Shown piece by piece: positions 25,616 through 44,784 of a stretch of 64,000 bases of DNA. A program made the translations under genes and the position numbers. The notes below the pieces were generated by a model. That model was not told the origin of the DNA and did not search any database. It was given only the letters and a program-made list of their open reading frames with translations. The stretch is taken from the NCBI GenBank assembly GCA_018647505.1, contig JABGSX010000006.1:245-64244 (forward strand). Reading direction: 5' to 3'. Numbering within the stretch: position 1 is the first letter of the stretch; each line of letters starts with the position of its first letter. This DNA comes from a bacterium. Its GTDB lineage: Bacteria; Babelota; Babeliae; Babelales; JABGSX01.

Positions 25616-25626
25616 TTTTAACCCCT

Positions 25627-26121: not shown

Positions 26122-26126
26122 CAAAA

Positions 26127-26681: not shown

Positions 26682-26700
26682 TTTAAACAAGTCCCCCTTT

Positions 26701-27153: not shown

Positions 27154-27245
27154 GATTCGCTCCCTTTAAAAAGGATTTTTCTTTATGATTGGTATAGCAT
27201 ATAGGAAAAAAATTGGAGATGGTATACTTTTTGAAAAAATTCTTA

Positions 27246-27277
27246 ATAAAAAGCAGCCCCCAAAAAACAAGGGCTGC
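27246..27277 (-). terminator. Hairpin terminator after island member 9
   Basis: GCAGCCC (27253-27259) pairs with GGGCTGC (27271-27277). On the minus strand the hairpin is followed by a T-run. Confidence 0.7.
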
Positions 27278-27306
27278 AAAGTTTAACTTTTTATATGTTT
27301 TTATAT

Positions 27307-27615
27307 TTAGATTCTGGTTAGATCTTTCCTGGAAGAAGGACCAGTATCTGTGGCGCCTGTAACACCACCGGTATGAACACCACCAGAACCACCTTTAAAA
27401 CGACGGAACGACATCAAAGCTTCAAAAGCTCTTGCAGCAAGACCTTTCCCCGGCACTAAAGCTCTTCCTGTTGGTACGTAAGCCTTGCCACCACGATCTG
27501 TTTTTATCTCAGCCCCTTTTCCTGCGCACGCACCCAAAAAACACGTTTCTTTATCACCCGCACTTGCCTGAAAAACATAGGCTAAGATAACAGCTGTTAT
27601 CAAAATTCGTTTCAC
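27307..27615 (-). CDS. Small secreted Gly-rich protein, island member 9 (conserved-signal-peptide group B)
   Basis: 102 aa. GTG start with SD GAAGGA. MKRILITAVILAYVFQASA. Confidence 0.7.
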   Translation of the reverse strand: MKRILITAVILAYVFQASAGDKETCFLGACAGKGAEIKTDRGGKAYVPTGRALVPGKGLAARAFEALMSFRRFKGGSGGVHTGGVTGATDTGPSSRKDLTRI

Positions 27616-27725
27616 GTTTTATCCTTCGTAAAATATTTTTAATATAATAGCTTAATGAACACTTAAAAAGGCGACCGCATTTTACAAAGCGGTCGCCTTT
27701 TTACTTATTAAATTTTTATATTTTC
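27616..27725 (-). repeat. Intergenic module copy 1 (3' flank, terminator, leader)
   Basis: Shares AATTTAATAAGT, the GGCGACCGC/GCGGTCGCC hairpin and the TAAGC..ATTA leader with 28122-28276 and 28544-28700. Shorter than the other two copies. Confidence 0.8.
27665..27702 (-). terminator. Hairpin terminator (module copy 1)
   Basis: GGCGACCGC (27670-27678) pairs with GCGGTCGCC (27689-27697), flanked by A and T runs. Confidence 0.85.
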
Positions 27726-28121
27726 CTAATCGCCAGTACCGCCACGAGACTCACCCAAAGCACCTCCTAGTCTGCTTCTGAATTCATCTAATACACCAAG
27801 ACTTTCACCATGTTCGGCAACGGTTCTAGCAAGACCTTCGACAGTTTCTTTTGTTGCGAAAGGGACAAGATCACCTCTTTTTGCACACTCTGCAAGGTCA
27901 CCGTGGACTACCCTATCTCTTTCTAGCTCCACAACTCTTTCTTGAAGTCTCGTAACCAATCCATGAGCTTTTACACCTAAATACGCAGCTCCGACTACTA
28001 ACAGAGCCCCACCAGTTACCTGCGCAGCTCTTCTTCCTGAAATCCTCGGTAAGCGACGTTCAGCTGCACTTGCTTGTGCCACACATGCCAAAAAAATAGC
28101 GGCTATCAAAATTCGTTTCAT
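27726..28121 (-). CDS. Small secreted/membrane-anchored protein, island member 8 (group B)
   Basis: 131 aa. MKRILIAAIFLACVAQASA, then the Gly/Ala-rich hydrophobic helix VTGGALLVVGAAYLGV, then an Arg/Glu/Leu/His-rich tail. SD AAAGG. Confidence 0.75.
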   Translation of the reverse strand: MKRILIAAIFLACVAQASAAERRLPRISGRRAAQVTGGALLVVGAAYLGVKAHGLVTRLQERVVELERDRVVHGDLAECAKRGDLVPFATKETVEGLARTVAEHGESLGVLDEFRSRLGGALGESRGGTGD

Positions 28122-28276
28122 GTATTACCTTTCGTGAAAACTTAGTAATGTTAAAAATGTTTAATACAATGGCTTAACTTTATAGCACATGAACACTTGG
28201 TTGTAAACAAAAAAAGCAACTACCACATAAAACAATAATCGCTTTTTTACTTATTAAATTCTTATATTTTCTATGC
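28122..28276 (-). repeat. Intergenic module copy 2 (3' flank, decayed terminator, promoter, leader)
   Basis: Aligns by eye along nearly its full length with 28544-28700, except that the hairpin arms have decayed. Confidence 0.85.
28179..28207 (-). promoter_or_regulatory. sigma70-type promoter of island member 8
   Basis: Minus strand: TTTACA (28207-28202), 17-nt spacer, TATAAA (28184-28179). The same arrangement is conserved at 28601-28629. Confidence 0.55.
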
Positions 28277-28543
28277 CTACCAATCCAAGCGCTCTTCGAC
28301 GACTCTTATTGTTGCTAACCTTGTCTCACGTTCACGCGCAAGCTCTTCTTCGGTCTTGGCATCAGTATCTACAGCAACCTCTATAGAAGGCCCACCTAGT
28401 TCACGACTTAGTTTGCTAACAGCTTCTTTTTTTGCACAGGCAGCACATTTTACACACACCTTACACTTATGCCGTTTTCCGTCACTTGCGCTTGCTTGTG
28501 CCACACATGCCAAAAGAATAGCCACTATAAAAATTCTTCTCAT
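28277..28543 (-). CDS. Small secreted Cys-motif/acidic protein, island member 7 (group B)
   Basis: 88 aa. MRRIFIVAILLACVAQASA, then HKCKVCVKCAACAKK (CxxCxxCxxC), then a Glu/Arg-rich tail. Confidence 0.7.
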   Translation of the reverse strand: MRRIFIVAILLACVAQASASDGKRHKCKVCVKCAACAKKEAVSKLSRELGGPSIEVAVDTDAKTEEELARERETRLATIRVVEERLDW

Positions 28544-28600
28544 TTGTTAACTTTCGCCAAAACCTTATAATTTAAAAAATGCTTAATACAACGGCTTAAT

Positions 28601-28629
28601 TTTATAGCACATGAACATTTGGTTGTAAA
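28601..28629 (-). promoter_or_regulatory. sigma70-type promoter of island member 7
   Basis: Minus strand: TTTACA (28629-28624), 17-nt spacer, TATAAA (28606-28601). Starts directly after the terminator T-run. Confidence 0.55.
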
Positions 28630-28630
28630 C

Positions 28631-28670
28631 AAAAAAGGCGACCGCCTTTTGCAAAGCGGTCGCCTTTTTT
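28631..28670 (-). terminator. Hairpin terminator (module copy 3)
   Basis: GGCGACCGC (28637-28645) pairs with GCGGTCGCC (28656-28664), flanked by A and T runs. Confidence 0.85.
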
Positions 28671-28700
28671 ACTTATTATTTTCTTTAAAAAGAACTTTTA

Positions 28701-29234
28701 TTATTCGGCGTATGCTCCTGAAGTAAGAGCAACATGCTCGCCTAGAGCGGTTTCCACAGCTACAATTCTTCCTGCGTGAGATCCCAAGGCATCACTATGT
28801 GCTCCAATAGCTCCACCATGTTCTTCAAGAGATGCTTCATGTCTGGAAAGAGTATCCCCCTGTCCGGAAATAACGCGACTCTGTGCGGAAAGAGTTTCTT
28901 CATGTCTCGCTGACGCTTTTCCCAATACTCTCAACGACGCACCTAAATCAGCTGAATCTGTTAACGCTGACAATCGTGCAGCCATTCTTCCACCAAGCCC
29001 CCAAGCCTTTTTACCACCAACATAAAGTAAGGCTAAGGCTCCGGCGCCACCAGCAACTTTGGCTTGTGTTCTATAATCAACACGTGTAAAACGATCTGTT
29101 GCATAACTTCCAGCACCAAGTGTTGCTACAACCGCCGCTCTTTTACCCCATTTTTTAGCGGCCGCTTTTTTTCCGCCAGCCATCATGTGAGCTCCGACAG
29201 ACAACAACAATATTGCAAAAAGTAAACGTTTCAT
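28701..29234 (-). CDS. Secreted/membrane-anchored protein with His-heptad tail, island member 6
   Basis: Start set at ATG 29234 (SD AAAGGG). MKRLLFAILLLSVGAHMMA, G/A-rich helix AGGAGALALLYVGGKKAW, then nine x-H-x-x-x-[LI]-x heptads at the C-terminus. Confidence 0.75.
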   Translation of the reverse strand: MKRLLFAILLLSVGAHMMAGGKKAAAKKWGKRAAVVATLGAGSYATDRFTRVDYRTQAKVAGGAGALALLYVGGKKAWGLGGRMAARLSALTDSADLGASLRVLGKASARHEETLSAQSRVISGQGDTLSRHEASLEEHGGAIGAHSDALGSHAGRIVAVETALGEHVALTSGAYAE

Positions 29235-29343
29235 AAAAAAAACCCTTTCTGAGTTTGAAAAACCTATTAAACACAACTTCCTACCAACTTCAACCTAGTT
29301 TATAACATAGAAGATTTTTAAAGTAAACCCCACAAAATAACAC

Positions 29344-29814
29344 CTAGCAATGTCTTGCTTTCCAACTTGTTTTAGCACTTTTTGCTATATAATATACCGA
29401 GGGAAAATTTCGATTTAAAAATCTTAAAAATCGTCCATCATCACTGCATGAAATTCGCCGTGTAAGAACGCCCTCTATTTCTGGTTGTTCTTGGTCGGCA
29501 ACGGCATTTTCACCTTCGTAACAGCCTCCTTGTGACTTTTCTTCAAGCTTTTTGCTTAAACTTGGACGTTCTTCTTCTTCATGATGTTCCGAATTATTTG
29601 GGGGATTTTCAGAATCCTCTGGCCCACATGGCATATCATCTTCAACGAGAACCGACGGTCCACGATAAGAATCATAAGCTTTTTTTCCAGCTACAGTTAA
29701 ACATGCCAGAACCGCAATCCCCGCAGCTACATTTTGCCCTTTACTCATCTCAGCCCTGGAGGCAAAGTGAACACTCATGGCAAGAAAAACCAGCATCAAT
29801 AAACATTTTTTCAT
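29344..29814 (-). CDS. Secreted/membrane-anchored acidic protein, island member 5
   Basis: 156 aa. MKKCLLMLVFLAMSVHFASRA, second helix VAAGIAVLACLTVAGKKAY, then an acidic segment. Confidence 0.7.
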   Translation of the reverse strand: MKKCLLMLVFLAMSVHFASRAEMSKGQNVAAGIAVLACLTVAGKKAYDSYRGPSVLVEDDMPCGPEDSENPPNNSEHHEEEERPSLSKKLEEKSQGGCYEGENAVADQEQPEIEGVLTRRISCSDDGRFLRFLNRNFPSVYYIAKSAKTSWKARHC

Positions 29815-29999
29815 GTTTGTACTCCTTGTGTAATTGTACGATTAATAAAACAGTATGGTTTATAATATGATTGATATTTTTTACCACAGAAAAAATGATT
29901 TGCCAAGCAAGTTTGATGTTGAATTATCCGTTCTTACTTAGTGGAATAAGCGATAGCGAATGTGGCCAAATGTATACGAACATAAAGAAAAGATTTAAA

Positions 30000-30314
30000 T
30001 TAATTTAATGGCGCCTCTGCAGCCCGAACACCATCGCCTGTATCTAACTCCATTTGCAATTCAGCTTCAAATTGTTTTTGTCTTGCTTGTGCTGCTTCTT
30101 TTTGCTTCGCTTCTCTATCCGCCTGTGCACGTTCTAATGCAAGATCTCGTTGGTCTTCTTGAACTCCACGTATAGTATTGGCCGTCATCATTCGCCTTAA
30201 CTTAGAAGTAATGACCGAAACTTGTCTTGGAACTGCGGATTGTTCTTCTTTGTCAGCTGAATACATAAATACACAAAAGCTCAAACAAAAAAATAAACTA
30301 ATAATTTTTTTCAT
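30000..30314 (-). CDS. Small secreted charged (Q/E/R/A-rich) protein, island member 4
   Basis: 104 aa. MKKIISLFFCLSFCVFMYSA. SD TGGAG. Confidence 0.7.
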   Translation of the reverse strand: MKKIISLFFCLSFCVFMYSADKEEQSAVPRQVSVITSKLRRMMTANTIRGVQEDQRDLALERAQADREAKQKEAAQARQKQFEAELQMELDTGDGVRAAEAPLN

Positions 30315-30359
30315 AAAAACTCCATATTTAATTTTTCTTGAATCTACAATAGATTTTGA

Positions 30360-30722
30360 TTACTTTCTTTTAGCCGCACTAACACTAGATCGCCAAGCAG
30401 AAAAAACTTTTTTTACCAACTCTTTATGATCAATAAAAATACTTCTCATTTCATCCATGCCCTGTTCACGGCTTTCCACCTCTTCTTGATACATACTCTT
30501 TGAATAGTTTGTTACTGTAGACCAATTGTCATCATCATCGCAAGGCACAGCCTCCCCGGGCAATTCAACAACAGAACAATTAGGCCTTAAAAGGCTCTCT
30601 ACTGTTTCACAACCATCCGTGCCTCCTGTCGGTTCACCAAAGGCTCCAGCGTATACACGATTATCAGCCCCCCTCAACCAAAAAGTGAAAAACAATAAAA
30701 GACAAAACAAAGCTCTTTTCAT
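30360..30722 (-). CDS. Small secreted protein, island member 3
   Basis: Start set at ATG 30722 (SD AAGGA) rather than the ORF-track TTG at 30743. MKRALFCLLLFFTFWLRGADN. Confidence 0.65.
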   Translation of the reverse strand: MKRALFCLLLFFTFWLRGADNRVYAGAFGEPTGGTDGCETVESLLRPNCSVVELPGEAVPCDDDDNWSTVTNYSKSMYQEEVESREQGMDEMRSIFIDHKELVKKVFSAWRSSVSAAKRK

Positions 30723-30784
30723 AAAATCCTTAGAAATATTCAAAAAAATTATAATGTTATAGAGTAAAAAGTTTACAAAAAAAA

Positions 30785-30819
30785 GAGGAAAAAGACTATT
30801 AATTTAAGTCTTTTTCCTC
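30785..30819 (-). terminator. Hairpin terminator after island member 2
   Basis: Perfect 12-bp stem: GAGGAAAAAGAC (30785-30796) pairs with GTCTTTTTCCTC (30808-30819). On the minus strand it is followed by a T-run. Confidence 0.85.
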
Positions 30820-30838
30820 AAAAAACAATTTTTACTTT

Positions 30839-31372
30839 TTATCTACTAATACTCCTTTGCTTTCCATCAACCCCACGGTTAAATTGAGCCATCAATGCAT
30901 CAAGAGAATCAAAATCACCGGACCTTTTCGCACTCGATGGTCTTGGTTCCGGCTCTTCTCCGCCCTCATCTAAAGCGTCCAAAACTCTTGTGGGATCTCG
31001 GCGAAGCCTGGTTGCAACTCCGCGAGGAACAAACGAAACCCTTCTACCGCCACGCTCCACTTGCAGGAGACTTGTTGGGACATGCGGAACACCTTTTACA
31101 GCAAGTCTTCCCATTGCACAAAATAACGGTGGCACAGCTGGTGTTTCATCTGCGGTCTCAGCATGGGCTTCTGTAGCATAAGCTTCTCCCCCCGAAGGAG
31201 GCGCATCTTCATGACCCTTCGCCCCAAATATTTTCATAACCAAAGCTGATAAAAATAATTTGTGTGGTTCGCTCGGGCAGGCACCATAGGCACCGGCACG
31301 ATGCCTTGACGCACCCTCTAAAATCCCAGTCGACAAAACTATAAACAAAAAAAGAGCTGCTATTTTTTTCAT
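30839..31372 (-). CDS. Secreted Ala/Gly/Arg/Pro-rich protein, island member 2
   Basis: 177 aa. MKKIAALFLFIVLSTGILEGA. SD AGGGAA. Confidence 0.7.
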   Translation of the reverse strand: MKKIAALFLFIVLSTGILEGASRHRAGAYGACPSEPHKLFLSALVMKIFGAKGHEDAPPSGGEAYATEAHAETADETPAVPPLFCAMGRLAVKGVPHVPTSLLQVERGGRRVSFVPRGVATRLRRDPTRVLDALDEGGEEPEPRPSSAKRSGDFDSLDALMAQFNRGVDGKQRSISR

Positions 31373-31404
31373 GAAATGGTTCCCTAAATTTTGAATTTTA
31401 CAAC

Positions 31405-31737
31405 TTACCTCTTACTTAAAGCACACGGATCATCTAAAACAATTCTAATTCCATCAAGTAGTCCAACGTCAGCTCTAGAAGAATCATCTTCCCCTTCTAA
31501 ACCATCATAACGCTCATGCCGTGGAGAAAATACATCAAATTGATTGCGCGGATACGACAAACCTCTAAAACCCGGATGCTTAACGTCTGTCATATCAACA
31601 CATCTATGAACAACCGGCCTTAAAAGAACAAATCTTGCCGCGCATGCAACAAGACCTTTTTGTGCTCCAGGATCTCCAGGAAAAGATTTTTGAGAAATCG
31701 ACAACAAAACAATCGCAATCATAACAACCTTCTTCAT
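31405..31737 (-). CDS. Small secreted protein, island member 1
   Basis: 110 aa. MKKVVMIAIVLLSISQKSFPG. SD GGGGGGAG. Confidence 0.7.
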   Translation of the reverse strand: MKKVVMIAIVLLSISQKSFPGDPGAQKGLVACAARFVLLRPVVHRCVDMTDVKHPGFRGLSYPRNQFDVFSPRHERYDGLEGEDDSSRADVGLLDGIRIVLDDPCALSKR

Positions 31738-32079: not shown

Positions 32080-33189
32080 TCACACACCTAACTTTCGCTT
32101 CTTTAAACTTTTTTGCGAAAATACTATTTTCCTTTTTTCTTTTATGCTCAATTGATTAAGAACATAATAAAAAAAATCACGGTCCGCACCTTTTACCACC
32201 GCCTGCTCATGAGCCTCCGACAAACATACCGGATAGCCTTGGCCCTTTTTGCTCTGATCAAAACAAACCGATGCTACAACATCAACCAAACTTTGATCGT
32301 TTGCAATCCATGCTGGAAATTCAACACGAGCAACCTCTTGCCCAACGTTCATGTAAAAAAAATGCGGAACTAAGTGTTCCGGATACTGTTTGGTAATTCG
32401 ACTGTTGTTTTTAAAAACAATGGACCTCTGTCCCTCTTGCAAATAAAAACTTGCTATCGAGCTGTCGACCAAGTGATCAACTGAATTTGCCGAGTTATAT
32501 TTACTGTGATCAAAAGCACATAACTCTAAACGAATCAAATTTACAAGCTCCTTGCTTTTTGGAAAGCTTATGTAGCTTGCTGTTATTATTTTTTTCTCAT
32601 ACACCCGCTCAAGAAGAGCGATATAGATTGACAAGAATCTTTGTTTTATTTCATGTCCATAATTTTCCAAATGCCAAAAAATTAATGAGCCATCAAAAAG
32701 CAAAATTGTCCCGGGATTTTTTGAAGCATAATCAATACCGACCTTGAATTCCAGTTCTTGCCTGCGGCAATCTACAATCTCAGATGAAAAACTTTCTGCA
32801 ATATCAGAAACATCCTTCATTGAAAAAACATACGGAACAGTGATCATTTTTGCAGGAATATAATTTTTGGAATAATTAAGATGAACAATCCCTACATTAA
32901 CCAAAAAACAAGATGCCCCATAATGCCTATCGGGATAAATTTGGGAACCATCAACGGCCACAACCTTGTATTCAGAACTTGGCTTAACATTATATTTTCT
33001 ACCAAGCAATCCACCCCAATGTGGTACAAGCCACGGACTTTGAGACGCCTTAACCTTTTGATCAAAAGTACTCTCTTGAGAAATTTTGGTCCACACTTTT
33101 TCTGCACGCAAATATTCATCTGAAAAGTCTAAAAATAATTCATCCGTCGCTAAAGACAAGGCTTTTACAACCTTGGCACGGTCAAGCAT
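32080..33189 (-). CDS. NurA-domain-like nuclease (tentative)
   Basis: 369 aa. VVAVDGSQIYPDR and LLFDGSLIFW (two DGS blocks), and GQGYPVCLSEAHEQAVV near the C-terminus. This matches my memory of the NurA 5'-3' nuclease domain pattern. Start overlaps the sufU stop by 8 nt. Confidence 0.55.
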   Translation of the reverse strand: MLDRAKVVKALSLATDELFLDFSDEYLRAEKVWTKISQESTFDQKVKASQSPWLVPHWGGLLGRKYNVKPSSEYKVVAVDGSQIYPDRHYGASCFLVNVGIVHLNYSKNYIPAKMITVPYVFSMKDVSDIAESFSSEIVDCRRQELEFKVGIDYASKNPGTILLFDGSLIFWHLENYGHEIKQRFLSIYIALLERVYEKKIITASYISFPKSKELVNLIRLELCAFDHSKYNSANSVDHLVDSSIASFYLQEGQRSIVFKNNSRITKQYPEHLVPHFFYMNVGQEVARVEFPAWIANDQSLVDVVASVCFDQSKKGQGYPVCLSEAHEQAVVKGADRDFFYYVLNQLSIKEKRKIVFSQKSLKKRKLGV

Positions 33190-33580
33190 TTTTATCTCGA
33201 TATTTTTTTATTCCATCTTGAATTGCTCTCAACGACAAAACTGCGCATTTTATTCGCGCAGGACCAAGCTCCATTTTGATCAAATTTAAAACATCATGTT
33301 CTTCTAGTTTATCAATTTCCTTAATAGTCTTTCCCTTACAAAACTCAGTAAGTATCGATGCTGTTGCCATACTTATCACGCAACCGTCTCCACTAAATTT
33401 TATTTCTGTAATAACACCATTATTGACCTTCGCATCTATATTAACCTGATCACCACAGGTTGGATTGTGATGCAAACTAGAAATGTCTGGGGTTTTCAAT
33501 AAACCTTTGTTTTTTGGATTTTTGTAGTGCTCCTGCATGTGATGCGCATATAGATTTTTAATGCTCATTTTGTGCTTCAC
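33182..33580 (-). CDS. sufU: SufU/IscU-type Fe-S cluster scaffold/sulfur acceptor protein
   Basis: 132 aa. NPTCGD, GDGCVISMATAS and a C-terminal KCAVLS cysteine. Confidence 0.85.
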   Translation of the reverse strand: MKHKMSIKNLYAHHMQEHYKNPKNKGLLKTPDISSLHHNPTCGDQVNIDAKVNNGVITEIKFSGDGCVISMATASILTEFCKGKTIKEIDKLEEHDVLNLIKMELGPARIKCAVLSLRAIQDGIKKYRDKNA

Positions 33581-33720
33581 TTTCTTTTAAAAATGAATTA
33601 ACATGCCGACTAATTAGAGATTATAACACGAATATAAAAAAAATATTCCAATATACAATCACATTTTTCTATACTTGTTTAGGTCTAATCGGTCTTGACA
33701 ATACACAAAGGGAGTTTGGC

Positions 33721-35460
33721 ATGAAAATAAAAAATAATTATAAAAAAACTTTTGTTAAAATTTTTCTTATTTTTTTACTTATAGCCAGCACAAATTCACA
33801 TACAGCCTCTGAAGGACTTAGGTTATTTTATACAGAATGCGACAGACTAACAGCTGAAATTGAAGCGACTCCAGGCCTAAGCCCTTCTCTGTTAAGTCGA
33901 TCAGAGAAAATGCTCGCAACTGTTGCAAAAGAAATTAACTCTGTTGAATGGAGCCAAGAAATTTTTACAAGAGTCTCACAATTGGTTCAAGCAATAGGAA
34001 AAAAAACATTAGAAGGAGACGGGCTTTCACCAGAAGCTGACATAAAGCAAATCGCATTGGCATTTTCCATGTTCCCAGATTCTCACAAAGATGCAAGACA
34101 CCCTGTAAACATTCTAGGATTATCAAATACTCTGCTTATGCTTTGTGGTCAATCAGCATCCAGAACAAGCGGTTTATTAACGGACGGGTCTCATAACATA
34201 TTTTTGCCAAGTATTCTGCGAAGCTTGTTTACCATAACCGACTCATTGCACAGAACAATTACAACAAGGCAGCTAAGGGAGGTTGCACAGTTCAACCTAG
34301 CAGAACATGGAATTGCGGTCATTCCACCTAGCATGGCAGCAGAATTCGGGCAGCACCTTATTTGCGATTCATGGGTAGCAGCAGAAGCACTTCCCGCTAA
34401 CTTGTTTGGCCCTCGGCCACCATCAGAAGTTGAACGGTTACTTTCCGAATATGGTGCAATTTCTGACGAGGTAGGAAGACACATAGAAATACTTAGACAA
34501 AAAGCCGAACAACTAGGACGACCACTGACGGCTGAAGATCTTCTTGGAGATGCCCCCGAGGAAAAAGAAGAAGAAGAGGAAGAAGAAGCACCAACGTTTC
34601 CAGCCGCGGAGGAAGAAGATCCAATGTTGTCCTCCAATAGCCCCCGTGCAATTTTTGCGCAAATAACAGGGCTGGTTACACGAGGCAAAAAACTGTTTAT
34701 AGCAATTATAGCACTTGGAACCGCCACAGGAACAATGGGAGCCCTATTTAAACGCCAATCAAATGGAACAAGAGTCTTTGACGGCGGGCTTTCTGCTTTA
34801 ATGGCAATTCCAGCAATATTTTCTGGAGTTAAAGTTGCCGGTGCAGCAGTTATAGCATTACTATCAGCATGGTACACCTCATGGAAAATAAAACGACTTT
34901 TACACGCTGACTGCAGAGCTGAAAGAAAGCTTGATCAAGACCGATTCAGATTGACATATGAACGTCATGGCGAACAAACATTATTAAAGCTTAAAGACAT
35001 CAAGCGTGTACAAAAAGAGATACTACGCGAACAAAAAGCAGACAAAAAAGAAAGACAACGACTGAGGGAAGAATTGGCGGCATCAGTTGCAAGTGTAACA
35101 ACCGTAGCACAAGGCACAAAGGCTGTTATGGACCAACAATTTAAAGCAATAATGGACAAACATCAAAGCGCAGAGGGAATTGTCCAAGAACTACAAGCAC
35201 TTGTTTTACAATGCTCTGATATGGCATTGCACGTCAGGGATGGCGTCGGCGCATACCTAGAAGGACACGAAGCTCAACTTATGGATGCAGCTATAAGTCG
35301 CGGGGTACCACAGTTGGTTCGCGATGACGAATTGAGAAGATTAGAATATATAGTTGCACATCATGGCCGATTTGGAAAAGGCAAATATAAAGAACGGCAA
35401 AAAGTAACACAGGCAATAGCAGATGTTCCTAGTGAAGCTCTTGTTGTTATTGAAACATAA
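33721..35460 (+). CDS. Hypothetical G+C-rich protein with signal sequence, poly-Glu tract, paired TM helices and a coiled-coil-like C-terminus
   Basis: 579 aa. MKIKNNYKKTFVKIFLIFLLIAS, EEKEEEEEEEA (around 34561-34590), hydrophobic pair KLFIAIIALGTATGTMGALF and LSALMAIPAIFSGVKVAGAAVIALLSAWY (around 34690-34885), and a K/E/R/Q-rich tail. Confidence 0.7.
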   Translation: MKIKNNYKKTFVKIFLIFLLIASTNSHTASEGLRLFYTECDRLTAEIEATPGLSPSLLSRSEKMLATVAKEINSVEWSQEIFTRVSQLVQAIGKKTLEGDGLSPEADIKQIALAFSMFPDSHKDARHPVNILGLSNTLLMLCGQSASRTSGLLTDGSHNIFLPSILRSLFTITDSLHRTITTRQLREVAQFNLAEHGIAVIPPSMAAEFGQHLICDSWVAAEALPANLFGPRPPSEVERLLSEYGAISDEVGRHIEILRQKAEQLGRPLTAEDLLGDAPEEKEEEEEEEAPTFPAAEEEDPMLSSNSPRAIFAQITGLVTRGKKLFIAIIALGTATGTMGALFKRQSNGTRVFDGGLSALMAIPAIFSGVKVAGAAVIALLSAWYTSWKIKRLLHADCRAERKLDQDRFRLTYERHGEQTLLKLKDIKRVQKEILREQKADKKERQRLREELAASVASVTTVAQGTKAVMDQQFKAIMDKHQSAEGIVQELQALVLQCSDMALHVRDGVGAYLEGHEAQLMDAAISRGVPQLVRDDELRRLEYIVAHHGRFGKGKYKERQKVTQAIADVPSEALVVIET

Positions 35461-35486
35461 AATATATAATTAACTTCTCAATAAAA

Positions 35487-35517
35487 ACACCTCGCAACTT
35501 TGCGAGGTGTTTTTATT
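35487..35517 (+). terminator. Rho-independent terminator
   Basis: ACACCTCGCA (35487-35496) pairs with TGCGAGGTGT (35501-35510), followed by TTTTATT. Confidence 0.85.
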
Positions 35518-35588
35518 GTGTTAAAAAGCCAATCTGATACAATCTAATAAATATTTTTAAATCAGAAACAGTACCACCGAGATGATAC

Positions 35589-36554
35589 TTGAAAAACAGA
35601 CTTTTTGCCCGAACATTGAATTTACACAGAAAAAGATTACAATTATGGTCTACTGTAAAATTAAGTATGGTTTTGTTATTAACATTTTTTATGGCACAGT
35701 GCGGCCTAAGCGAGAGATCAATGATAGAACATAAGAACGAAGCTCAAGAAGAAGACCCTCCCTCTTTATCTAAGTCTAAAACCACAAAACATATTATCTT
35801 TGACCTTGGCGGAGTAATGATACACTTTCCAAAAATTCGCCCTCTGTTTTATATTGGAATTGGAAATATTTTGTGGTACACACTCATAAAACGAAAAAAT
35901 CCAACCAAAATTTTGTACCATCTACTAGATATCGCTTACAAAATGGTCGACGAAAAAGAAAAAACCGATATCGTATTTAAAGACCACGTAATGTTTAGAA
36001 ACCACCCGCTAACAGCACTAACAAAAGAAGCCCTTTTGGGACACGTTACTTGTAACCAATTGCTAAAAGCAACAAAAGAGGCTTTGGTGAAAGCACAAGC
36101 TAAAAAGTTAATTGAACCACGAGAGCGAATGATCTTAGAAAAATTTGCAGATTTAATTATCGATCCAAAAACTGGCACACAGTATCTTGAAATATCAAGT
36201 TCATGCGTAAGCTTAATCCGTAAACTTAAAGAAGACAAAAACAACAAACTATATATTTTATCCAATTGGCCTGCAGACTCATTTGAGCTTTTAAGCCACT
36301 TACACAACGATGTTTTTAATCTATTTTACGGAATGGTAATCTCATCACATGTTCATCTGATAAAACCAGACAAAAAAATATACGAAAAACTATTAGTAAA
36401 ATACAATCTTGACCCTAGGTGTTGTTATTTTGTTGACGACCAGCAGGAAAACTTGGATGCCGCCAAAGATGTTGGAATCCACGGAGTTCTATGGAAAAAT
36501 GCAAGTGACGCAGAAATCAAACTAAAGAAACTTCACGTTATAGAAGATGTATGA
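35589..36554 (+). CDS. HAD-superfamily hydrolase with N-terminal membrane/signal segment
   Basis: 321 aa. Motif I IIFDLGGVM and motif IV YFVDDQQENLDAAKDVG. The TTG start in the ORF track is uncertain. Confidence 0.7.
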   Translation: MKNRLFARTLNLHRKRLQLWSTVKLSMVLLLTFFMAQCGLSERSMIEHKNEAQEEDPPSLSKSKTTKHIIFDLGGVMIHFPKIRPLFYIGIGNILWYTLIKRKNPTKILYHLLDIAYKMVDEKEKTDIVFKDHVMFRNHPLTALTKEALLGHVTCNQLLKATKEALVKAQAKKLIEPRERMILEKFADLIIDPKTGTQYLEISSSCVSLIRKLKEDKNNKLYILSNWPADSFELLSHLHNDVFNLFYGMVISSHVHLIKPDKKIYEKLLVKYNLDPRCCYFVDDQQENLDAAKDVGIHGVLWKNASDAEIKLKKLHVIEDV

Positions 36555-37018
36555 AATCATTTCTTGTAATCTCTACAATCATTTTTGATCTTGCTGGAGT
36601 AATATTTAATTTCCAACCTTCCGATTTAACACTTGCCTTAAAACAAGATGTTCCTAGCAACCCTTTTTCCGTTTTTGACCAAGGACTTGCTACAGTAAAA
36701 AGATTAAAAGAAAAAAATTTCAAAGTTATTGCTTGCACAAATTTTGGCAAGGGGCCAATGGACCTTTTAAACAAATATCACAAAGACGTAATGGATTTAT
36801 TTGAAGATGTAATTACACCATCTGAATCTAAACACAGTAAACCTGACGCTAGAATGTATTCATACATTTTGAAAAAGCATAACGTTGTAGCAGAAGAATG
36901 TTTATTTATAGATGACTGCCAAAGTAATGCAATAGGCGCAAACGATGTTGGCCTTAATGCAATACATCTAAAAAACTGGGAACAAGCTATAAAAGAACTT
37001 AAAGAATTAGGCCTTTAA
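36551..37018 (+). CDS. HAD-superfamily hydrolase (short)
   Basis: 155 aa. IIFDLAGVIF and LFIDDCQSNAIGANDVG. 4-nt overlap with the upstream HAD gene. Confidence 0.75.
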   Translation: MKSFLVISTIIFDLAGVIFNFQPSDLTLALKQDVPSNPFSVFDQGLATVKRLKEKNFKVIACTNFGKGPMDLLNKYHKDVMDLFEDVITPSESKHSKPDARMYSYILKKHNVVAEECLFIDDCQSNAIGANDVGLNAIHLKNWEQAIKELKELGL

Positions 37019-37840
37019 AGCACTTTCACTTAAAGATTTGGCAAACGCCTCAATTCTCTTGCCAAGAACAAACCTGGAAAATGAATCAAAATGTTTATCT
37101 TTACTCCAACGCTCAAGCACACCGCAAGCTGATTTTGTCAGTTCCGGCATTTTTTTTACAACCAACGCATCTGCAGCAATTTCTTGTCTTACAAATAACC
37201 ATGAAATAACCGGAGAATAAAACCAATTAGTGACAGGCTTTGAAGCATATTTGGCCACAAGACCAAATTTAATCAACCCTGCACACCAATTAACAACTGG
37301 ACCAATAAACTTCCACGAGAAAGAAAGCCCTGGTATTAAAGAGTTAACCTGTGTAGCAACAGCAATGTTAAGCCCCTTAGCCAAAGTTTGAACAAGATAT
37401 GTCTTTTTATAATCACCATTCATGACATGGGCAACTGCATTTGCAAGAAGAAACAACCGATCATTTTCTTTTAATGCATATAGTGTTTGCTCATTGACAT
37501 AAACAAAATTGCACGTTGCAAAAGCACCAAACGCCCTGCTTTTGGATTTCATTTGCCTAAGCTGCAGGCTGTGAGAACAACCCATTTTGTAAACAACAAA
37601 ATCAAACATTTTCTGAGTTTGTTCTGAAACAGAATCTTCGCCAAAGGTCTGTTCATCAAAAGGATCCATAATTGGAACATTTCTTGGAACACCAAGAACA
37701 TGCTTAACTGGAGCAATTTTTACAATTTCTCTTTCTACAGGAGACAAAAATGAACATGAAAAAAATATGAATAAAAAGGATAGAATAAGATTAGAAGATT
37801 TCATAAAACGACCTCCATCGCTTAAAGCAAAACCCCACAT
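37007..37840 (-). CDS. M48-like peptidase homolog with degenerate active site (probable pseudo-enzyme)
   Basis: 277 aa. Aligns by eye with 39223-40089, but HEIAH is replaced by NAVAH. The E..AD block is retained as RQEIAADAL. Has an N-terminal signal/TM segment. Confidence 0.5.
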   Translation of the reverse strand: MWGFALSDGGRFMKSSNLILSFLFIFFSCSFLSPVEREIVKIAPVKHVLGVPRNVPIMDPFDEQTFGEDSVSEQTQKMFDFVVYKMGCSHSLQLRQMKSKSRAFGAFATCNFVYVNEQTLYALKENDRLFLLANAVAHVMNGDYKKTYLVQTLAKGLNIAVATQVNSLIPGLSFSWKFIGPVVNWCAGLIKFGLVAKYASKPVTNWFYSPVISWLFVRQEIAADALVVKKMPELTKSACGVLERWSKDKHFDSFSRFVLGKRIEAFAKSLSESALKA

Positions 37841-37894
37841 TTAAAAATCTAAATACGTATTTTTTAATATACTAAAAAAAACAAAATTGTCCAT

Positions 37895-39124
37895 TTACTT
37901 AAGCATTTGCTCTATAGCAAACAAGAACAATTCAACTTCTTTTAGCGTGTTATAAACATGAAAACTTACACGAATTGACGCCTTTATTCCAAGTTCTTTA
38001 TGAAGAGGCTGGGCACAGTGATGACCCGCACGAACACAAATATTTTTCGTATCCAAATATGCGGCAACATCATGTGCATGAACATCAAATACGTCTTCTA
38101 CAACAAAGGAAACAAGGTGCCCAGAATTTTTAAGCTGTTCAACAGGACCCAAAATACGAATCTGCTCAAATTGCGACAAACCATCTATTGTTCGCGTACA
38201 CAATGACGCCTCATGATTTTTTAAGCTTTCCCAACCAATATTATCTTTATAATAATCTATGGCAGCACCTAGCCCAACAACCTGCGCAATTGGTGGAGTC
38301 CCTGCCTCATATCTGTAGGGAGGTTGTTGAAATGTTGATTGATCATAAAAAACTTCACAAACCATTGAGCCCCCAAATTGGTATGGTGCAACCTCATCTT
38401 GAATGGATTTTTTTATGTACAAAATACCAACACCAGAAGGACCAAGCATTTTATGACTTGAAAAAACAAGAAAGTCACAATCCAAACTTTTAACATCTAT
38501 TTTTTTGTGTGGTGAAGACTGTGCAGCATCGATTAAAACTTTTGCGCCAACACTTTTTGCTGCGCTAACAATTTTTTTCACAGGAGCATGAGTTCCCAAA
38601 ACATTCGAAACATGCGCAAAGGAAACCAATTTTGTTTTTTTTGTTATAATTTGGTCAAGATTTGTAAGATCTAAATAACCATCTTTTGTAATTGGTATAA
38701 ACTTTAAAATTACGCCTTTTTTGAGAGCAATTTGCTGCCAAGGAATAAGATTAGAATGGTGCTCAAGATGCGTTAGAACAATTTCATCACCCTTTTTCAA
38801 ATGCTTTTGTGCCCATGCTGTCGCTACAAAATTGATTCCCTCGGTTGTTCCTTTGGTAAAAATAACTTCACATGCATCTGAAGCCCCAATAAAATTTTTT
38901 ATCTTTCTTCGAACATCTTCATACACAATTGTTGATTTTTCACCCAAAGAATAAATCCCTCTGTGAACAGGAGCATACTCATAAGAATAAAAATCATGTA
39001 ATTTTTGAATTACCGAATTAGGTTTTTGAGATGTTGCAGCACTGTCAAGATAAATAAGTTCATCCGAAATATTTTTCGAAAGAAAAGGAAAATCTTTGCG
39101 ACACATTTTAATAACCCAAGCCAT
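37895..39124 (-). CDS. sufS: Cysteine desulfurase SufS (class V aminotransferase)
   Basis: 409 aa. PLP-lysine context SSHKMLGP and catalytic Cys RAGHHCAQP. Confidence 0.95.
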   Translation of the reverse strand: MAWVIKMCRKDFPFLSKNISDELIYLDSAATSQKPNSVIQKLHDFYSYEYAPVHRGIYSLGEKSTIVYEDVRRKIKNFIGASDACEVIFTKGTTEGINFVATAWAQKHLKKGDEIVLTHLEHHSNLIPWQQIALKKGVILKFIPITKDGYLDLTNLDQIITKKTKLVSFAHVSNVLGTHAPVKKIVSAAKSVGAKVLIDAAQSSPHKKIDVKSLDCDFLVFSSHKMLGPSGVGILYIKKSIQDEVAPYQFGGSMVCEVFYDQSTFQQPPYRYEAGTPPIAQVVGLGAAIDYYKDNIGWESLKNHEASLCTRTIDGLSQFEQIRILGPVEQLKNSGHLVSFVVEDVFDVHAHDVAAYLDTKNICVRAGHHCAQPLHKELGIKASIRVSFHVYNTLKEVELFLFAIEQMLK

Positions 39125-39222
39125 ATTTTAAAGAGCTAAACACACTACAAAATTATTCTATCTCACAAAATTAAAATGGTAAAATTTTAGCAATTCAAAA
39201 ATGAATATCTTAAATCATCAAA

Positions 39223-40089
39223 TTAGGCCAACACATTTTCAATTTCCATATCTGTTGCCCCCAGTTTTTTTGCCATTTCAATTGCATATTTTTTTCTGGA
39301 ATTTATTGAAGGATGCGTCAGCTGAACTGAACGCAATCTTTTAAGCCAAGAATACTGTCTACCAGAAAAAGAACCTTTTTCTAGCTGATTTCCATATTGA
39401 CTAAAAAATGTAACTGCACCTAAAGCACTTTCTTTACTATCTACAATGGCCGCCTTGTCTGCTCTTTTTTCAGCAAATTTTGAACATAAAGAAAAAACTA
39501 TAAACGGAATCATTAAAGCAAAAAAACTAGAATATAAAGATACTGTTGGAGCAACCAAATAATAACCGAACTGAAAAAAAAGACCAAGGAAAAGGCCTTT
39601 AAAAAAAATCCCAGGAAATTTTGCATCTTCGTATAAGCAGTGAGCAATTTCATGCCTGATTACAAAAGAATATTTACCAATTTCATTACAGGACAGCTTA
39701 TCAAACTCTTTTTCCTCAAAAATATGAACATTGTTTCCCGAAGCAAAATATTTGAATTTTTCATTCTTACAACCCTTGAACATAATTTTTTTGGAAAAAT
39801 TTTTTGGCTTAATATCGTTTAGACACTTGTTTGCGAGTTTTTTCATTGGCTCAGACATTACAACATTACGTTGTTTTTTTACAATTCGTCCTACAAGTAA
39901 TAAATATGAAATAAAAATTAAAACAGTTGGAAGAAAAATACTGATGTATTCATCGGCTAAATGGAAAGAAACAGGAATTGATAGTAAATCAAATAAAATA
40001 AAAACAAGAGCGCAACACGCTATAAATAAAAAAATATAATTTAGAAGCAAAAAAGCAAAATTAAATATTTTTTTTAAGCTAAACATCAC
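39223..40089 (-). CDS. Membrane M48-family-like zinc metallopeptidase
   Basis: 288 aa. HEIAH zinc motif, downstream EKRADKAAI and THPSINSR blocks, several TM helices. Confidence 0.6.
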   Translation of the reverse strand: MMFSLKKIFNFAFLLLNYIFLFIACCALVFILFDLLSIPVSFHLADEYISIFLPTVLIFISYLLLVGRIVKKQRNVVMSEPMKKLANKCLNDIKPKNFSKKIMFKGCKNEKFKYFASGNNVHIFEEKEFDKLSCNEIGKYSFVIRHEIAHCLYEDAKFPGIFFKGLFLGLFFQFGYYLVAPTVSLYSSFFALMIPFIVFSLCSKFAEKRADKAAIVDSKESALGAVTFFSQYGNQLEKGSFSGRQYSWLKRLRSVQLTHPSINSRKKYAIEMAKKLGATDMEIENVLA

Positions 40090-40157
40090 TCAACCTCCTT
40101 TAAACAAAAATCGTAATCTATTAAAAATATATTAATAATATTACAATTTGTCAAGAT

Positions 40158-40976
40158 TTAAGCAATATCTAGACCTAAAAAACCATTAATTAAAAGTTTA
40201 TTTGCCTCTTCAATATCAATGCCAAATAGTTGGCAATAGGCTATCTGTTCCTCATCTAGGTAACCGCTTGTACTTCCATGTGAACACTCAACATTATTGT
40301 TTAAAATTTCCAATGAAGGGGTTGAAATCACTTGAGAGTTTTTGGAAAGAATAATATTTTTGTTCGCCTGGGTTGCAACACTCTTATTCGCGTTTTTGTC
40401 GATATATATTTTTCCATTGTACTCAAGCCGAGCACCGCTGTTCACAACCGATTTGACCAACACCGTTGTTCTTGCATTGCAATCTAAATGACTTTGCTCT
40501 GTAAAAACAATAGCCTTTTTGTTCGGTTTTATGTCCATACCAATTTTTAAATCTATGCTTCCACCTTCTCCAACACACTTTAACAAATATTTATGCTCAA
40601 CAACATTGTCTACTAAAACCCTTCCGCTAACAACAATAGAGGAATTCAAATCAGCAAAAAAGTTACGTGATAGCTCCTCGCTACGATCCAAGCCATTTTT
40701 AACTTTAATATTTAAAAAACTATTTTTTGATGCAAGATAAGTAACCTTGTTTACGCCAAAATTATCTGTTACTACACATTTTTGCTCTGCTATTAATAAA
40801 ACCTTGTTGTTCCGTTTGCATAGCTTATCAACATTAATATCGTTACCATCTACAGCAAAAATAATCCAATCAAAAAACAAATCGGATAGAAAGCTTACAA
40901 AATATTTTTCCGCCTTTTTGGGGTATTTCGCACAAAAGTCATACTTGGAAAATAATAACACTTGCTGACGTTCCAT
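40158..40976 (-). CDS. sufD: Fe-S cluster assembly protein SufD (short form)
   Basis: 272 aa. Beta-helix-like repeat region and C-terminal ...ANKLLINGFL, similar to the SufB C-terminus. Located directly after sufB. Confidence 0.8.
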   Translation of the reverse strand: MERQQVLLFSKYDFCAKYPKKAEKYFVSFLSDLFFDWIIFAVDGNDINVDKLCKRNNKVLLIAEQKCVVTDNFGVNKVTYLASKNSFLNIKVKNGLDRSEELSRNFFADLNSSIVVSGRVLVDNVVEHKYLLKCVGEGGSIDLKIGMDIKPNKKAIVFTEQSHLDCNARTTVLVKSVVNSGARLEYNGKIYIDKNANKSVATQANKNIILSKNSQVISTPSLEILNNNVECSHGSTSGYLDEEQIAYCQLFGIDIEEANKLLINGFLGLDIA

Positions 40977-42349
40977 TATCCTACAGATCCTTCCATTTCC
41001 AGATCAATAAGCCTGCTAATTTCAACCGCATATTCATCAGGAAGTTCGCAAATGAATGGTTCTAAAAATCCGTTAACAACAAGTGATCGCGCAGCTTGTT
41101 CATTAATCCCATTTAGCATAAGATACTCAAGCTTTTCCTCGTTTATTTTACTCACAAAAGCCTCATGCTCAACACACGCTTTTTGTTCTTTAACATCAAT
41201 TTTTGGGTAAGTATCAGAACGAGAACATTCATCTAAGATTAGTGAATCACATTGCACTTTACTTCTGGCCCCAGTTGCCCCTTTTGCCACCGACACCAGA
41301 CCTCTATAACTTACTCTTCCACCATCTTTGCAAATAGATTTAGAAATAACATGCGAACTTGTATCTGCCCCTAAGTGAATAATTTTTGCACCCGAATCTT
41401 GGTGTTGCCCTTCTTTAGCAACAGATATAGAAACTACCTCGCCCCTAGCACCCTGTTCTTTTAATACCATACATGGATATTTCATTGTAACTTTGCTACC
41501 AAAATTTCCATCAACCCATTGCATGGTTGCATTTTTATAAACAAAAGCTCGTTTTGTCACCAGATTATAAACGTTTGAAGTCCAATTTTGTATCGTGCTG
41601 TATTTAATGGATGAGTTTTCCATAGCAACAATTTCTACTACAGCACTGTGCAAAGAATGAGCCCTGTACACAGGAGCGCTGCACCCTTCAACATAATGGA
41701 ACTTTGAACCTTTTTCTGCAATAATCAACGTCCGCTCAAACTGGCCAAACTGCTCCGCCTCAATCCTAAAGTAAGTTTGTAAAGGTTGGTCTATTTCTAC
41801 CCCGCAAGGAACATATACAAAGCTTCCACCACTCCATACAGCACTGTTAAGAGCAGCAAGCTTATGTTCACTTTGCGAAACAACCGATGCAAAATATTTT
41901 TTCACAATTTGCGGATGTAACCTAACCCCATCATCCATGCTGCAAAAAATTACGCCCTTATCCGAATATTGCTTTTTTATATTTTTGTAAATTATCTCAG
42001 AATCAAACTGCGCACCAAGTCCGGCCAACATTTCTTTTTCTGCTTGAGGAACCCCAATGCGATCGAAAGTCTTTTTTATATTCTCAGGGACATCTTCCCA
42101 TGTACGTTTTTTTTCATTTACTGGCTGCACGTAATAAAAAAGATCATCAAAATCAAGAGCACTAATATCTGGACCCCACGTTGGAACCTTCAACTTGTAA
42201 AACATTTCCAAAGAGAAAAGTCTAAAGTCTGTCATCCAACCTGGTTCATTTTTTCTATCGGAAATTTCGGATACAATTTGTTTGCTTAAGCCCTTTTGGC
42301 GAACTGAAAAAAAAGGCTTAGACTGCTCTCGCTGTTGCATATTCGTCAA
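40976..42349 (-). CDS. sufB: Fe-S cluster assembly protein SufB
   Basis: 457 aa. FHYVEGCSAP block and conserved C-terminal half. The true start may be a few codons downstream of the ORF-track start. Confidence 0.95.
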   Translation of the reverse strand: MTNMQQREQSKPFFSVRQKGLSKQIVSEISDRKNEPGWMTDFRLFSLEMFYKLKVPTWGPDISALDFDDLFYYVQPVNEKKRTWEDVPENIKKTFDRIGVPQAEKEMLAGLGAQFDSEIIYKNIKKQYSDKGVIFCSMDDGVRLHPQIVKKYFASVVSQSEHKLAALNSAVWSGGSFVYVPCGVEIDQPLQTYFRIEAEQFGQFERTLIIAEKGSKFHYVEGCSAPVYRAHSLHSAVVEIVAMENSSIKYSTIQNWTSNVYNLVTKRAFVYKNATMQWVDGNFGSKVTMKYPCMVLKEQGARGEVVSISVAKEGQHQDSGAKIIHLGADTSSHVISKSICKDGGRVSYRGLVSVAKGATGARSKVQCDSLILDECSRSDTYPKIDVKEQKACVEHEAFVSKINEEKLEYLMLNGINEQAARSLVVNGFLEPFICELPDEYAVEISRLIDLEMEGSVG

Positions 42350-44760: not shown

Positions 44761-44784
44761 GCTCTTTACCTTTTTTTCAACTAG

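Follow-up and report, generated by a model that had tools for sequence, protein, structure and literature searches.

The gene and its protein

The stretch of DNA analysed here (the window) comprises 64,000 nucleotides of contig JABGSX010000006.1 and contains, on its plus strand at 33721-35460, an open reading frame (ORF) of 579 amino acids whose product, called the target below, is the subject of this study. A preliminary description of the locus had presented it as a G+C-rich orphan with a transmembrane (TM) hairpin like that of the inclusion-membrane (Inc) proteins of intracellular bacteria, and the N-terminus translated here agrees with the one quoted there. The features of the gene and of its protein are as follows.

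33182-33580, minus strand: sufU (NifU_N, Pfam E = 1.4e-31), divergent neighbour of the target gene
33710-33714, plus strand: Shine-Dalgarno-like GGGAG, read from the sequence, 6 nt 5' of the ATG
33721-33810, plus strand: predicted Sec-type (type I) signal peptide, residues 1-30, core FVKIFLIFLLIA, site T-A-S↓E-G
33811-34545, plus strand: N-domain, residues 31-275, acidic (net charge about -9) and predicted, at low confidence, to be helical throughout
34546-34638, plus strand: variable acidic linker, residues 276-306, net charge -13
34639-34692, plus strand: conserved pre-hairpin helix, residues 307-324, SPRAIFAQITGLVTRGKK; P308 and I311 invariant
34693-34749, plus strand: hydrophobic segment 1, residues 325-343, LFIAIIALGTATGTMGALF; Gly/Ala/Thr-rich
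34750-34788, plus strand: basic loop, residues 344-356, KRQSNGTRVFDGG; R351 and G356 invariant
34789-34884, plus strand: hydrophobic segment 2, residues 357-388; invariant S368-G369-x-K371 in mid-segment
34885-34929, plus strand: residues 389-403, a basic juxtamembrane motif, KIKRLLHADCRAERK; conservation within the family is highest here
34930-35460, plus strand: K/E/R/Q-rich helical tail, residues 404-579 and stop codon; long helices in the AlphaFold2 (AF2) model, at low confidence
34191-34877, minus strand: antisense ORF of 228 aa opposite the target; a compositional by-product, not a gene
35479-35518, plus strand: intrinsic terminator with an 18-bp stem and a U-run; RNA fold dG -26.8 kcal/mol, z = -9.46

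Several features mark the target as a real gene: an ORF of 579 codons in a genome of 36% GC, a Shine-Dalgarno-like sequence, a strong terminator and native GC content at third codon positions (GC3). The GGGAG sits inside a 140-bp AT-rich divergent intergenic region common to the target and sufU, and a consensus scan of the upstream region of the target reported no sigma-70 promoter on the plus strand. The terminator, which the preliminary description had placed at 35487-35517, is real: none of 200 shuffled sequences folds as well (0/200). It was missed by a simple consensus scan. Since its A-run and U-run are symmetric, it could act in both directions.

The window was compared with fetched contigs and genomes (loci L010-L016, L018 and L019), two of which, L010 and L012, encode orthologues of the target that are described below. 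The N-terminus of the target has an n-region, MKIKNNYKKTFVK, with five lysines and an h-region, IFLIFLLIA. Our signal-peptide call is rule-based: type I requires a basic n-region, a hydrophobic h-region 7-15 residues long and a c-region with small amino acids at -3 and -1, and by this rule all of these are present. A lipobox Cys is absent from the target signal peptide. The cleavage-type motif reads TAS↓EG, AAS↓EG and TQS↓KG in the three orthologues, with S30 (-1) and G32 (+2) invariant. The N-terminus of the target is therefore read as a conserved, predicted Sec-type signal peptide and not as a type III secretion signal.

The central part of the protein largely bears out what had been noticed earlier. 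The poly-Glu tract, EEKEEEEEEE, is present in the linker at residues 280-289 (34558-34587), and the two closely spaced hydrophobic segments are present at 34693-34884, 13 residues apart rather than about 16. On reading its sequence, the pre-hairpin helix in front of them appears amphipathic. Segment 1 contains a GxxxG motif (G333, G337) that is invariant in the three orthologues, and its Kyte-Doolittle peak is 1.9. The loop that follows is 13 residues long in the target, about 13 in the L010 orthologue and 31, Arg-rich, in the L012 orthologue. The first half of segment 2 looks amphipathic rather than membrane-spanning, and the orthologues have Glu there. As for the K/E/R/Q-rich tail, its helical nature is reproduced by AF2 at low confidence. 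We describe it as helical and charged and not as a coiled coil, since canonical heptads could not be demonstrated in the target, where a simple, non-discriminating score gives only a weak heptad signal.

Orthologues, base composition and the neighbouring island

An exhaustive phmmer search of 1.84 billion representative proteins returned two remote homologues only, P0002 (E = 2e-9) and P0003 (E = 7e-6). The gene for P0002, on contig L010, is divergent to sufU, as in the window. P0003 is a fragment of a 675-aa protein encoded at L012:1236-3263 (minus strand), where the gene order is that of the window flipped: HAD, the homologue, SufU, NurA and a run of small signal-peptide ORFs. Because both homologues are divergent to sufU, the target, P0002 and the L012 protein are syntenic orthologues. 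A signal peptide, a helical N-domain, an acidic linker, the hairpin, the basic motif and a helical tail are common to all three. Overall identity to the target is 28% (L010) and 21% (L012). Among the neighbours of the window and L012, NurA is 57%, SufU 50% and HAD 44% identical, and SufU of the window and of L010 are 44% identical.

Conservation is unevenly distributed along the protein. The N-domain is the fastest-evolving part, with 27% and 16% identity to the orthologues and many gaps; identity rises up to 38% in the hairpin and up to 59% in residues 389-410. The latter value is reached with the L010 orthologue, which has KIKRLLHAECRAKEK in this place. K389, K391, A396 and A400 are invariant in the basic motif, for which the consensus is KIKRLLHA(D/E)CRA. 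In the tail, identity is 20-30% over residues 411-500 and 13-16% over residues 501-579, with scattered invariant residues up to about 500, and the C-terminal 80 residues of the family are without conservation.

Outside this family of three, our searches are consistent with the orphan status assigned earlier, as neither Pfam, NCBIfam, the PDB nor phmmer matches the target to a housekeeping family. Searches of Pfam (E <= 0.01), NCBIfam (E <= 1e-5) and the PHROGs (E < 0.06) assign the target to no family. At E <= 10, Pfam gives sub-threshold, chance-level matches only for the target, P0002 and the L011-encoded orthologue, and none of these is IncA (PF04156). Sequence searches of the PDB, with the single sequence and with a profile, yield chance-level matches only. 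Foldseek against the PDB finds 0 matches at E <= 0.001 and only generic helical bundles, with a model that is too poor to decide. A word-indexed search of 5.8 billion proteins with the full target finds only itself, and with the three-sequence profile only P0003, coiled-coil and low-complexity words having probably filled the candidate list. A scan of JGI metagenomes with the family profile gives no match, and tblastn for paralogues in the window and all fetched loci recovers the three orthologues only.

The window is bacterial, with genes for GyrB, TopA and DnaJ, for an M23 peptidase and for signal peptidase I. Of the 120 top-ranking NurA homologues, all that have an organism name are labelled either "Candidatus Dependentiae" or "candidate division TM6". 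A scan of GTDB genomes seeded with SufS was uninformative on taxonomy: its matches were all distant (44-52% identity) and lay in MAGs labelled archaeal or CPR, with neither the source genome nor any close relative among them. The succession amine oxidase, epimerase, DnaJ, NurA, SufU, HAD, HAD and, further on, SufS is also found in the Dependentiae assembly GCA_035444025.1 (L019), and the order from amine oxidase to SufU recurs in L016, a contig whose NurA is named by NCBI for TM6 bacterium GW2011_GWF2_32_72. The window also carries an archaeal-style mevalonate cluster of four genes (7074-10884, minus strand):

7074-8339, minus strand: HMG-CoA reductase
8281-8745, minus strand: DUF35-type zinc-ribbon/OB-fold protein
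8699-9853, minus strand: thiolase
9850-10884, minus strand: HMG-CoA synthase-like protein

Dependentiae (TM6) is reported to be the sole bacterial phylum with the mevalonate pathway only (PMC6107057), and the cluster is consistent with this mevalonate-only status. The host genome is that of a Dependentiae (TM6) bacterium.

In four of the loci compared, from more distant Dependentiae (L014, L015, L018 and L019), HAD lies directly beside SufU and the target gene is absent from the slot. Because HAD adjoins SufU in these other Dependentiae, the target gene is a clade-specific addition, gained within one Dependentiae clade and vertically inherited. The distribution of homologues, a check proposed in the preliminary description, accordingly shows synteny kept only in a narrow Dependentiae clade and not across free-living bacteria. 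The adjacency to sufU had raised a functional link between the target and iron-sulphur cluster assembly; we reject it, as other Dependentiae have the same conserved junction without the target. In L016, unrelated small ORFs occupy the HAD-SufU slot. One of these occupants, a protein of 299 aa (L016:6271-7170, minus strand), was tried as a member of the family and rejected (hhalign probability 0.9%). Its design is analogous: the signal peptide is followed by a single TM segment rich in Ala and Ile, a basic stretch (KKIKERL) and a helical tail.

The base composition of the gene might suggest a foreign origin. The earlier observation itself stands: the first 25 codons have a GC content of 0.15 and the remainder 0.43, and in 200-nt windows GC peaks at 0.47-0.485 within the target while the flanks are at about 0.30-0.37. 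The AT-rich N-terminus results from a signal peptide that is rich in K, I, F, N and L. For the remainder, the other 48 ORFs of the window serve as the baseline (the backbone).

GC1: target 0.565; other 48 ORFs, mean 0.460
GC2: target 0.411; other 48 ORFs, mean 0.349
GC3: target 0.283; other 48 ORFs, 0.295 +/- 0.032

The GC3 deviation of the target from the backbone is -0.019, with a standard deviation among the other genes of 0.032. The GC content expected from the amino acids of the target under backbone codon preferences is 0.420, and that observed is 0.420. Because expected and observed values are equal and the excess lies in codon positions 1 and 2, the G+C excess is entirely a matter of amino-acid composition and not of foreign DNA. 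Compared with the backbone, the mature target is rich in Ala (10.9% vs 5.9%) and Arg (6.7% vs 3.4%) and poor in Lys (5.3% vs 9.6%) and Asn (1.5% vs 4.8%); the Arg/Lys ratio of the whole target is 1.09, against 0.17-0.47 in its neighbours. The same shift is seen in the L012 orthologue and in the small ORFs beside NurA, be it in the window, in L012 or in L013, and GC3 is native or low in all of them.

A recent foreign gene, taken from the host or from a GC-richer bacterium, would account for a local GC of 0.42-0.48 against a backbone of about 0.36, for an Arg/Lys ratio above 1 in a Lys-rich genome and for the absence of the target gene from most Dependentiae. However, its GC3 and codon choice are indistinguishable from those of the backbone, no donor-like homologue exists among the 1.84 billion representatives, and syntenic orthologues in genomes where SufU is only 44-50% identical indicate that the gene is old within the clade. 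This origin is largely refuted and we consider it very improbable. Codon usage fully explained by amino-acid composition is one half of what the preliminary description had named as speaking against its proposal, the other half being synteny across unrelated free-living bacteria. More generally, where G+C rises locally but GC3 stays native, the rise reflects selection on amino-acid composition and not foreign DNA.

The same holds for the 228-aa antisense ORF, which is present at 34191-34877 as reported. When the amino-acid sequence was kept fixed, synonymous codons were resampled and the longest antisense open run was scored, the observed run of 247 codons stood against resampled means of 174-222 (p = 0.11 and 0.33). 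The antisense ORF is a by-product of composition, no longer than chance gives. The Ala-rich orthologue of L011/L012 has a 324-aa antisense ORF opposite it, and the less GC-rich L010 orthologue has none of at least 80 aa.

On the other side of NurA, the window contains an island of small genes:

25073-31737, minus strand: island of 13 small ORFs (88-198 aa), all beginning with Sec-like signal peptides

The mature parts of the island proteins are rich in Ala, Gly, Arg and Glu and poor in Lys and Asn, with native GC3, and an AT-rich signal peptide followed by a GC-richer rest is seen in most of the 13 ORFs, though it is slight in some. Pfam gives no match to the island ORFs where tested. A near-identical signal peptide, M(K/R)RI(L/F)I.A..LA(C/Y)V.QASA, occurs in 27307-27615, 27726-28121 and 28277-28543. 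The 7-kb island parts DnaJ from NurA, which are adjacent in L019 and nearly adjacent in L016, and equivalent fast-changing islands are found in L012 and L013. Like the target gene on the opposite side of the conserved NurA-SufU pair, the island is an addition specific to this clade.

The target resembles the island proteins in its Sec signal peptide, in its Ala/Arg/Glu/Gly-rich, Lys/Asn-poor mature part and in its native GC3; the island is likewise placed beside the NurA-SufU pair and co-occurs with the target gene in L012. In several island proteins, as in the target, a hydrophobic segment rich in Gly and Ala precedes GKK and a helical tail. With 88-198 aa, they are however far shorter than the target (579 aa), and BLASTP of the target against them finds nothing beyond the signal peptide (best E = 0.008, in the signal peptide). 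Of the relation to the 25-32 kb island proposed earlier, shared design, composition and position are thus retained, while a common origin lacks any homology. Because the composition persists in 28%-identical orthologues with native or low GC3, it argues for selection on amino-acid composition and not for un-ameliorated foreign DNA.

A 468-aa WD40 beta-propeller protein with eukaryote-like domains is encoded at the NurA-DnaJ junction of L018 (L018:7261-8667), which suggests that this junction is a recurrent site of lineage-specific gain.

Membrane topology and possible roles

The hydrophobicity of the two segments was estimated by a Hessa sum, a crude, position-independent measure over 19-residue windows without length or position correction, in which lower values are more hydrophobic.

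Target: segment 1, 0.03 kcal/mol; segment 2, +3.0 kcal/mol
L010 orthologue: segment 1, +2.8 kcal/mol; segment 2, +5.2 kcal/mol
L012 orthologue: segment 1, +3.4 kcal/mol; segment 2, +3.4 kcal/mol

Control TM helices of the same clade, from a transporter of the major facilitator superfamily (MFS), a VTT protein and LepB, have sums of -3.6 to +2. On this crude translocon scale, the "TM hairpin" is only marginally hydrophobic. Basic stretches lie in the RGKK flank before segment 1, in the loop and especially in the region after segment 2.

Taken together, the target is probably a real, Sec-exported, membrane-associated and clade-specific Dependentiae orphan with native codon usage. For the full statement, which adds anchoring in the inner membrane, we regard the chances as evenly balanced. 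A role in the envelope or at the host interface is favoured. All known Dependentiae are obligate parasites that live inside protist cells (PMC6561590), which makes a role at the host interface plausible. In the cultured member Chromulinavorax destructans, 44% of the coding sequences have signal peptides, and this set is enriched in ORFans (PMC6561590). Many of its signal-peptide proteins are proposed effectors, and outer-membrane vesicles have been seen (PMC6561590).

In the arrangement that we favour, the type I signal peptide would route the target to SecYEG and be cut after Ser30 within the pattern A/T/Q-S followed by E/K-G. Both acidic parts, the helical N-domain and the variable linker, would reach the outside of the cytoplasm, and a conserved module of residues ~305-500 would hold the protein at the membrane. 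This module would consist of the pre-hairpin helix, segment 1 with its GxxxG, the basic loop, segment 2 with its SGxK, KIKRLLHA(D/E)CRA and the helical tail. Segment 1 may stop transfer and anchor the protein in the inner membrane of the bacterium, so that the basic loop, segment 2 (interfacial or re-entrant), the basic motif and the tail would be cytoplasmic. In such a topology, three of the four charged flanks (3/4) obey the positive-inside rule, and the conservation fits as well, the N-domain outside being variable and the C-terminal module inside better conserved. The target would then belong to a clade-specific set of Ala/Arg/Glu-rich genes with Sec signals that flank the backbone of DnaJ, NurA-SufU and HAD.

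Several points weigh against this arrangement. With crude Hessa sums of 0 to +5 kcal/mol, the segments may fail to integrate in the inner membrane, and the basic RGKK flank before segment 1 argues against a periplasmic placement. The topology rests on the charge distribution and on the crude Hessa sum. AF2, run on the single sequence and on the three-sequence alignment, gives all-helical models with a predicted local distance difference test score (pLDDT) of 44-46 and a predicted template-modelling score (pTM) of 0.29-0.32. The conservation pattern comes from three orthologues only, which is weak evidence, and the target DNA is identical in four of four copies (4/4; the window and three metagenomic contigs), so that the ratio of nonsynonymous to synonymous substitution rates (dN/dS) is not estimable.

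The weak hydrophobicity can also be read in another way, namely that the target is a soluble periplasmic or secreted helical bundle in which the segments form a buried core or a latent insertion hairpin, as in colicin, Bcl-2 or the diphtheria-toxin T domain. In the orthologues, the Hessa sums (+2.8 to +5.2) lie above the range of the control TM helices (-3.6 to +2), segment 2 has an invariant Lys and, in the orthologues, Glu, and the whole protein is predicted to be helical and carries a Sec signal peptide. However, strongly basic flanks and loop together with a conserved GxxxG are typical of membrane-embedded hairpins, and AF2 packs no confident bundle (pTM 0.29-0.32). The target matches neither Pfam Colicin nor any toxin family, and no Pfam or PDB sequence match connects it with the bundles of pore-forming colicins, Bcl-2 or diphtheria T. 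We consider a soluble bundle rather unlikely.

The preliminary description spoke of a membrane-inserted effector or surface protein; the architecture that it described holds, and the intracellular phylum makes a host-interface role plausible. A second alternative is an effector that inserts into host membranes in the manner of Inc proteins. The target would in this case be exported by Sec and released via a secretin like that of type II secretion systems (T2SS) or via outer-membrane vesicles, and its Gly/Ala-rich hairpin would enter the membrane of a vacuole or mitochondrion, with the acidic N-region and the basic tail in the host cytosol. The obligately intracellular life of Dependentiae, the proposed signal-peptide effectors of C. 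destructans and its vesicles (PMC6561590) are in line with such a role, as is the clade-restricted, fast-evolving nature of the family. The hairpin, at 0 to +5 kcal/mol, is weaker than the TM helices of the clade, which recalls the secreted effectors of PMC6110835, although the two scales do not allow a direct comparison. The basic flanks before and after the hairpin suit an arrangement in which both of its ends face the same side of a membrane, and an ATPase of the T2SS or type IV pilus (T4P) type is encoded nearby (43588-45243).

A further pointer lies in the linker of the L012 orthologue, where an insertion at residues ~315-330 carries an IQ-like, calmodulin-binding-type motif, LTIQCAFRRMRARDR, in the place where the target has poly-Glu. 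The motif LTIQCAFRRMRAR matches Pfam IQ with E = 0.011, but its 15.9 bits are below the gathering score of 20.3 and it is found in one of the three orthologues (1/3). It could be due to chance or be host-directed. Other observations also tell against the host-inserted effector: no known route would take such a protein, once exported by Sec, through the outer membrane and into a membrane of the host; unlike Inc loops, the loop of the hairpin carries charges and varies in length; and the tail, which would face the host, shows more conservation than the N-domain. Neither Inc proteins nor known effectors show homology to the target. We consider this role unlikely, and keep to a Sec-exported, membrane-associated protein of the envelope or host interface.

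The importance of the target hinges on its cellular location; alone, it is an uncharacterised orphan. Dependentiae are widespread parasites inside protist cells, and nearly half of their proteins have signal peptides, most of these being without known function. A conserved hairpin and KIKRLLHAxCRA module in a defined HAD-SufU slot, beside a fast-turnover island, is a tractable candidate for study. Dependentiae are not known to have a type III or IV injection system, and the target is a candidate for how they build their envelope or host interface without one.

Several other features of the window were recorded. The suf cluster is split over 32080-43070: sufC, sufB, sufD, a 288-aa gene, sufS and a 277-aa gene lie on the minus strand, followed by three plus-strand genes (HAD, HAD and the target) and then by sufU and nurA on the minus strand, which overlap by 8 nt (33182-33189). 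The ORFs 37007-37840 and 39223-40089 of this cluster have no Pfam match. Four tandem paralogues of ~560-617 aa with TPR repeats lie at 10975-18468 (minus strand), at least the first two with a methyltransferase domain. The T2SS/T4P-type ATPase is encoded as two ORFs on the minus strand, the MshEN N-domain at 44785-45243 and the T2SSE ATPase at 43588-44760, a split that may be genuine or may stem from a frameshift or an assembly error. A Bat-like (Bacteroides aerotolerance) cluster occupies 49817-54714 (minus strand), with BatD-like (49817-51646) and TPR BatC-like (51564-52682) proteins and the VWA proteins BatB-like (52670-53665) and BatA-like (53662-54714). For topoisomerase I (56406-58661, plus strand), the best NCBIfam model is bacterial topA (766 bits); the second best, PRK06319 "DNA topoisomerase I/SWI domain fusion protein", scores 660 bits, below its cut-off of 868.

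Comparison with Inc proteins and other secreted proteins

Inc hairpins usually lie near the N-terminus. That of the target is central, behind a domain of ~290 aa. Inc proteins localise to the inclusion membrane and contain at least one bilobed domain with two TM helices of 15-32 residues (PMC3048545). Their loop is shorter than 30 residues (known range 3-22, mean 8) and is without Lys, Arg, Asp and Glu (PMC3048545). Like Inc proteins such as IncA, the target comes from an obligately intracellular bacterium and combines two close hydrophobic segments with a helical, charged C-terminal region. Its family is lineage-specific and fast-evolving, and Inc members likewise share little sequence similarity. 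Segments of 19 and 32 residues and a loop of 13 fit the Inc length rule, but the segments are only marginally hydrophobic.

The differences are more telling. The target loop contains K, R, R and D, unlike Inc loops, and the L012 loop is 31 residues long. Inc proteins are type III substrates with an N-terminal type III secretion signal, whereas the target has a cleavable signal peptide of Sec type by our rule-based call; genes for type III secretion (the T3SS) are absent from the 64-kb window. Inc proteins are also specific to Chlamydiae, and the target is from Dependentiae. The target is not an Inc protein and resembles the chlamydial ones in outline only. What survives of the Inc-like architecture is the hairpin and the helical tail; the Sec signal, the charged and variable loop, the central hairpin and the phylum take it out of the class.

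A second comparison is with the TM effectors of T3SS and type IVB secretion systems (T4BSS), such as SseF, Tir and the Legionella effectors with TM domains, whose hairpins and TM segments are of intermediate hydrophobicity, as in the target. Secreted TM effectors lie just below the hydrophobicity threshold for inner-membrane targeting (PMC6110835). Unlike the target, these effectors are without Sec signal peptides and need injection systems and chaperones. The window shows no injection system of this kind, nor does the paper on C. destructans describe one (PMC6561590).

It is conceivable, though we hold it to be improbable, that Dependentiae have independently evolved Sec-dependent, hairpin-anchored proteins that enter host membranes, and that the present family is a functional analogue of Inc proteins with a different delivery. 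If this were true, marginal hydrophobicity would allow passage through SecYEG without trapping, and the variable linker, acidic or IQ-like, would bind factors of the host, calmodulin for example. The adjoining small Ala/Arg/Glu-rich signal-peptide proteins would then be part of the same host-directed arsenal.

The closest parallel to the exported, membrane-associated protein that we favour is found in the secretome ORFans of C. destructans, which belong to the same phylum, have signal peptides and no recognisable homology, and are presumed to act at the host interface. These ORFans are a descriptive category and not a family, whereas the target represents a three-member clade with a hairpin and KIKRLLHAxCRA module that had not been described. 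The target thus stands for a three-member family that is new within a known kind of gene, the signal-peptide ORFans of intracellular bacteria.

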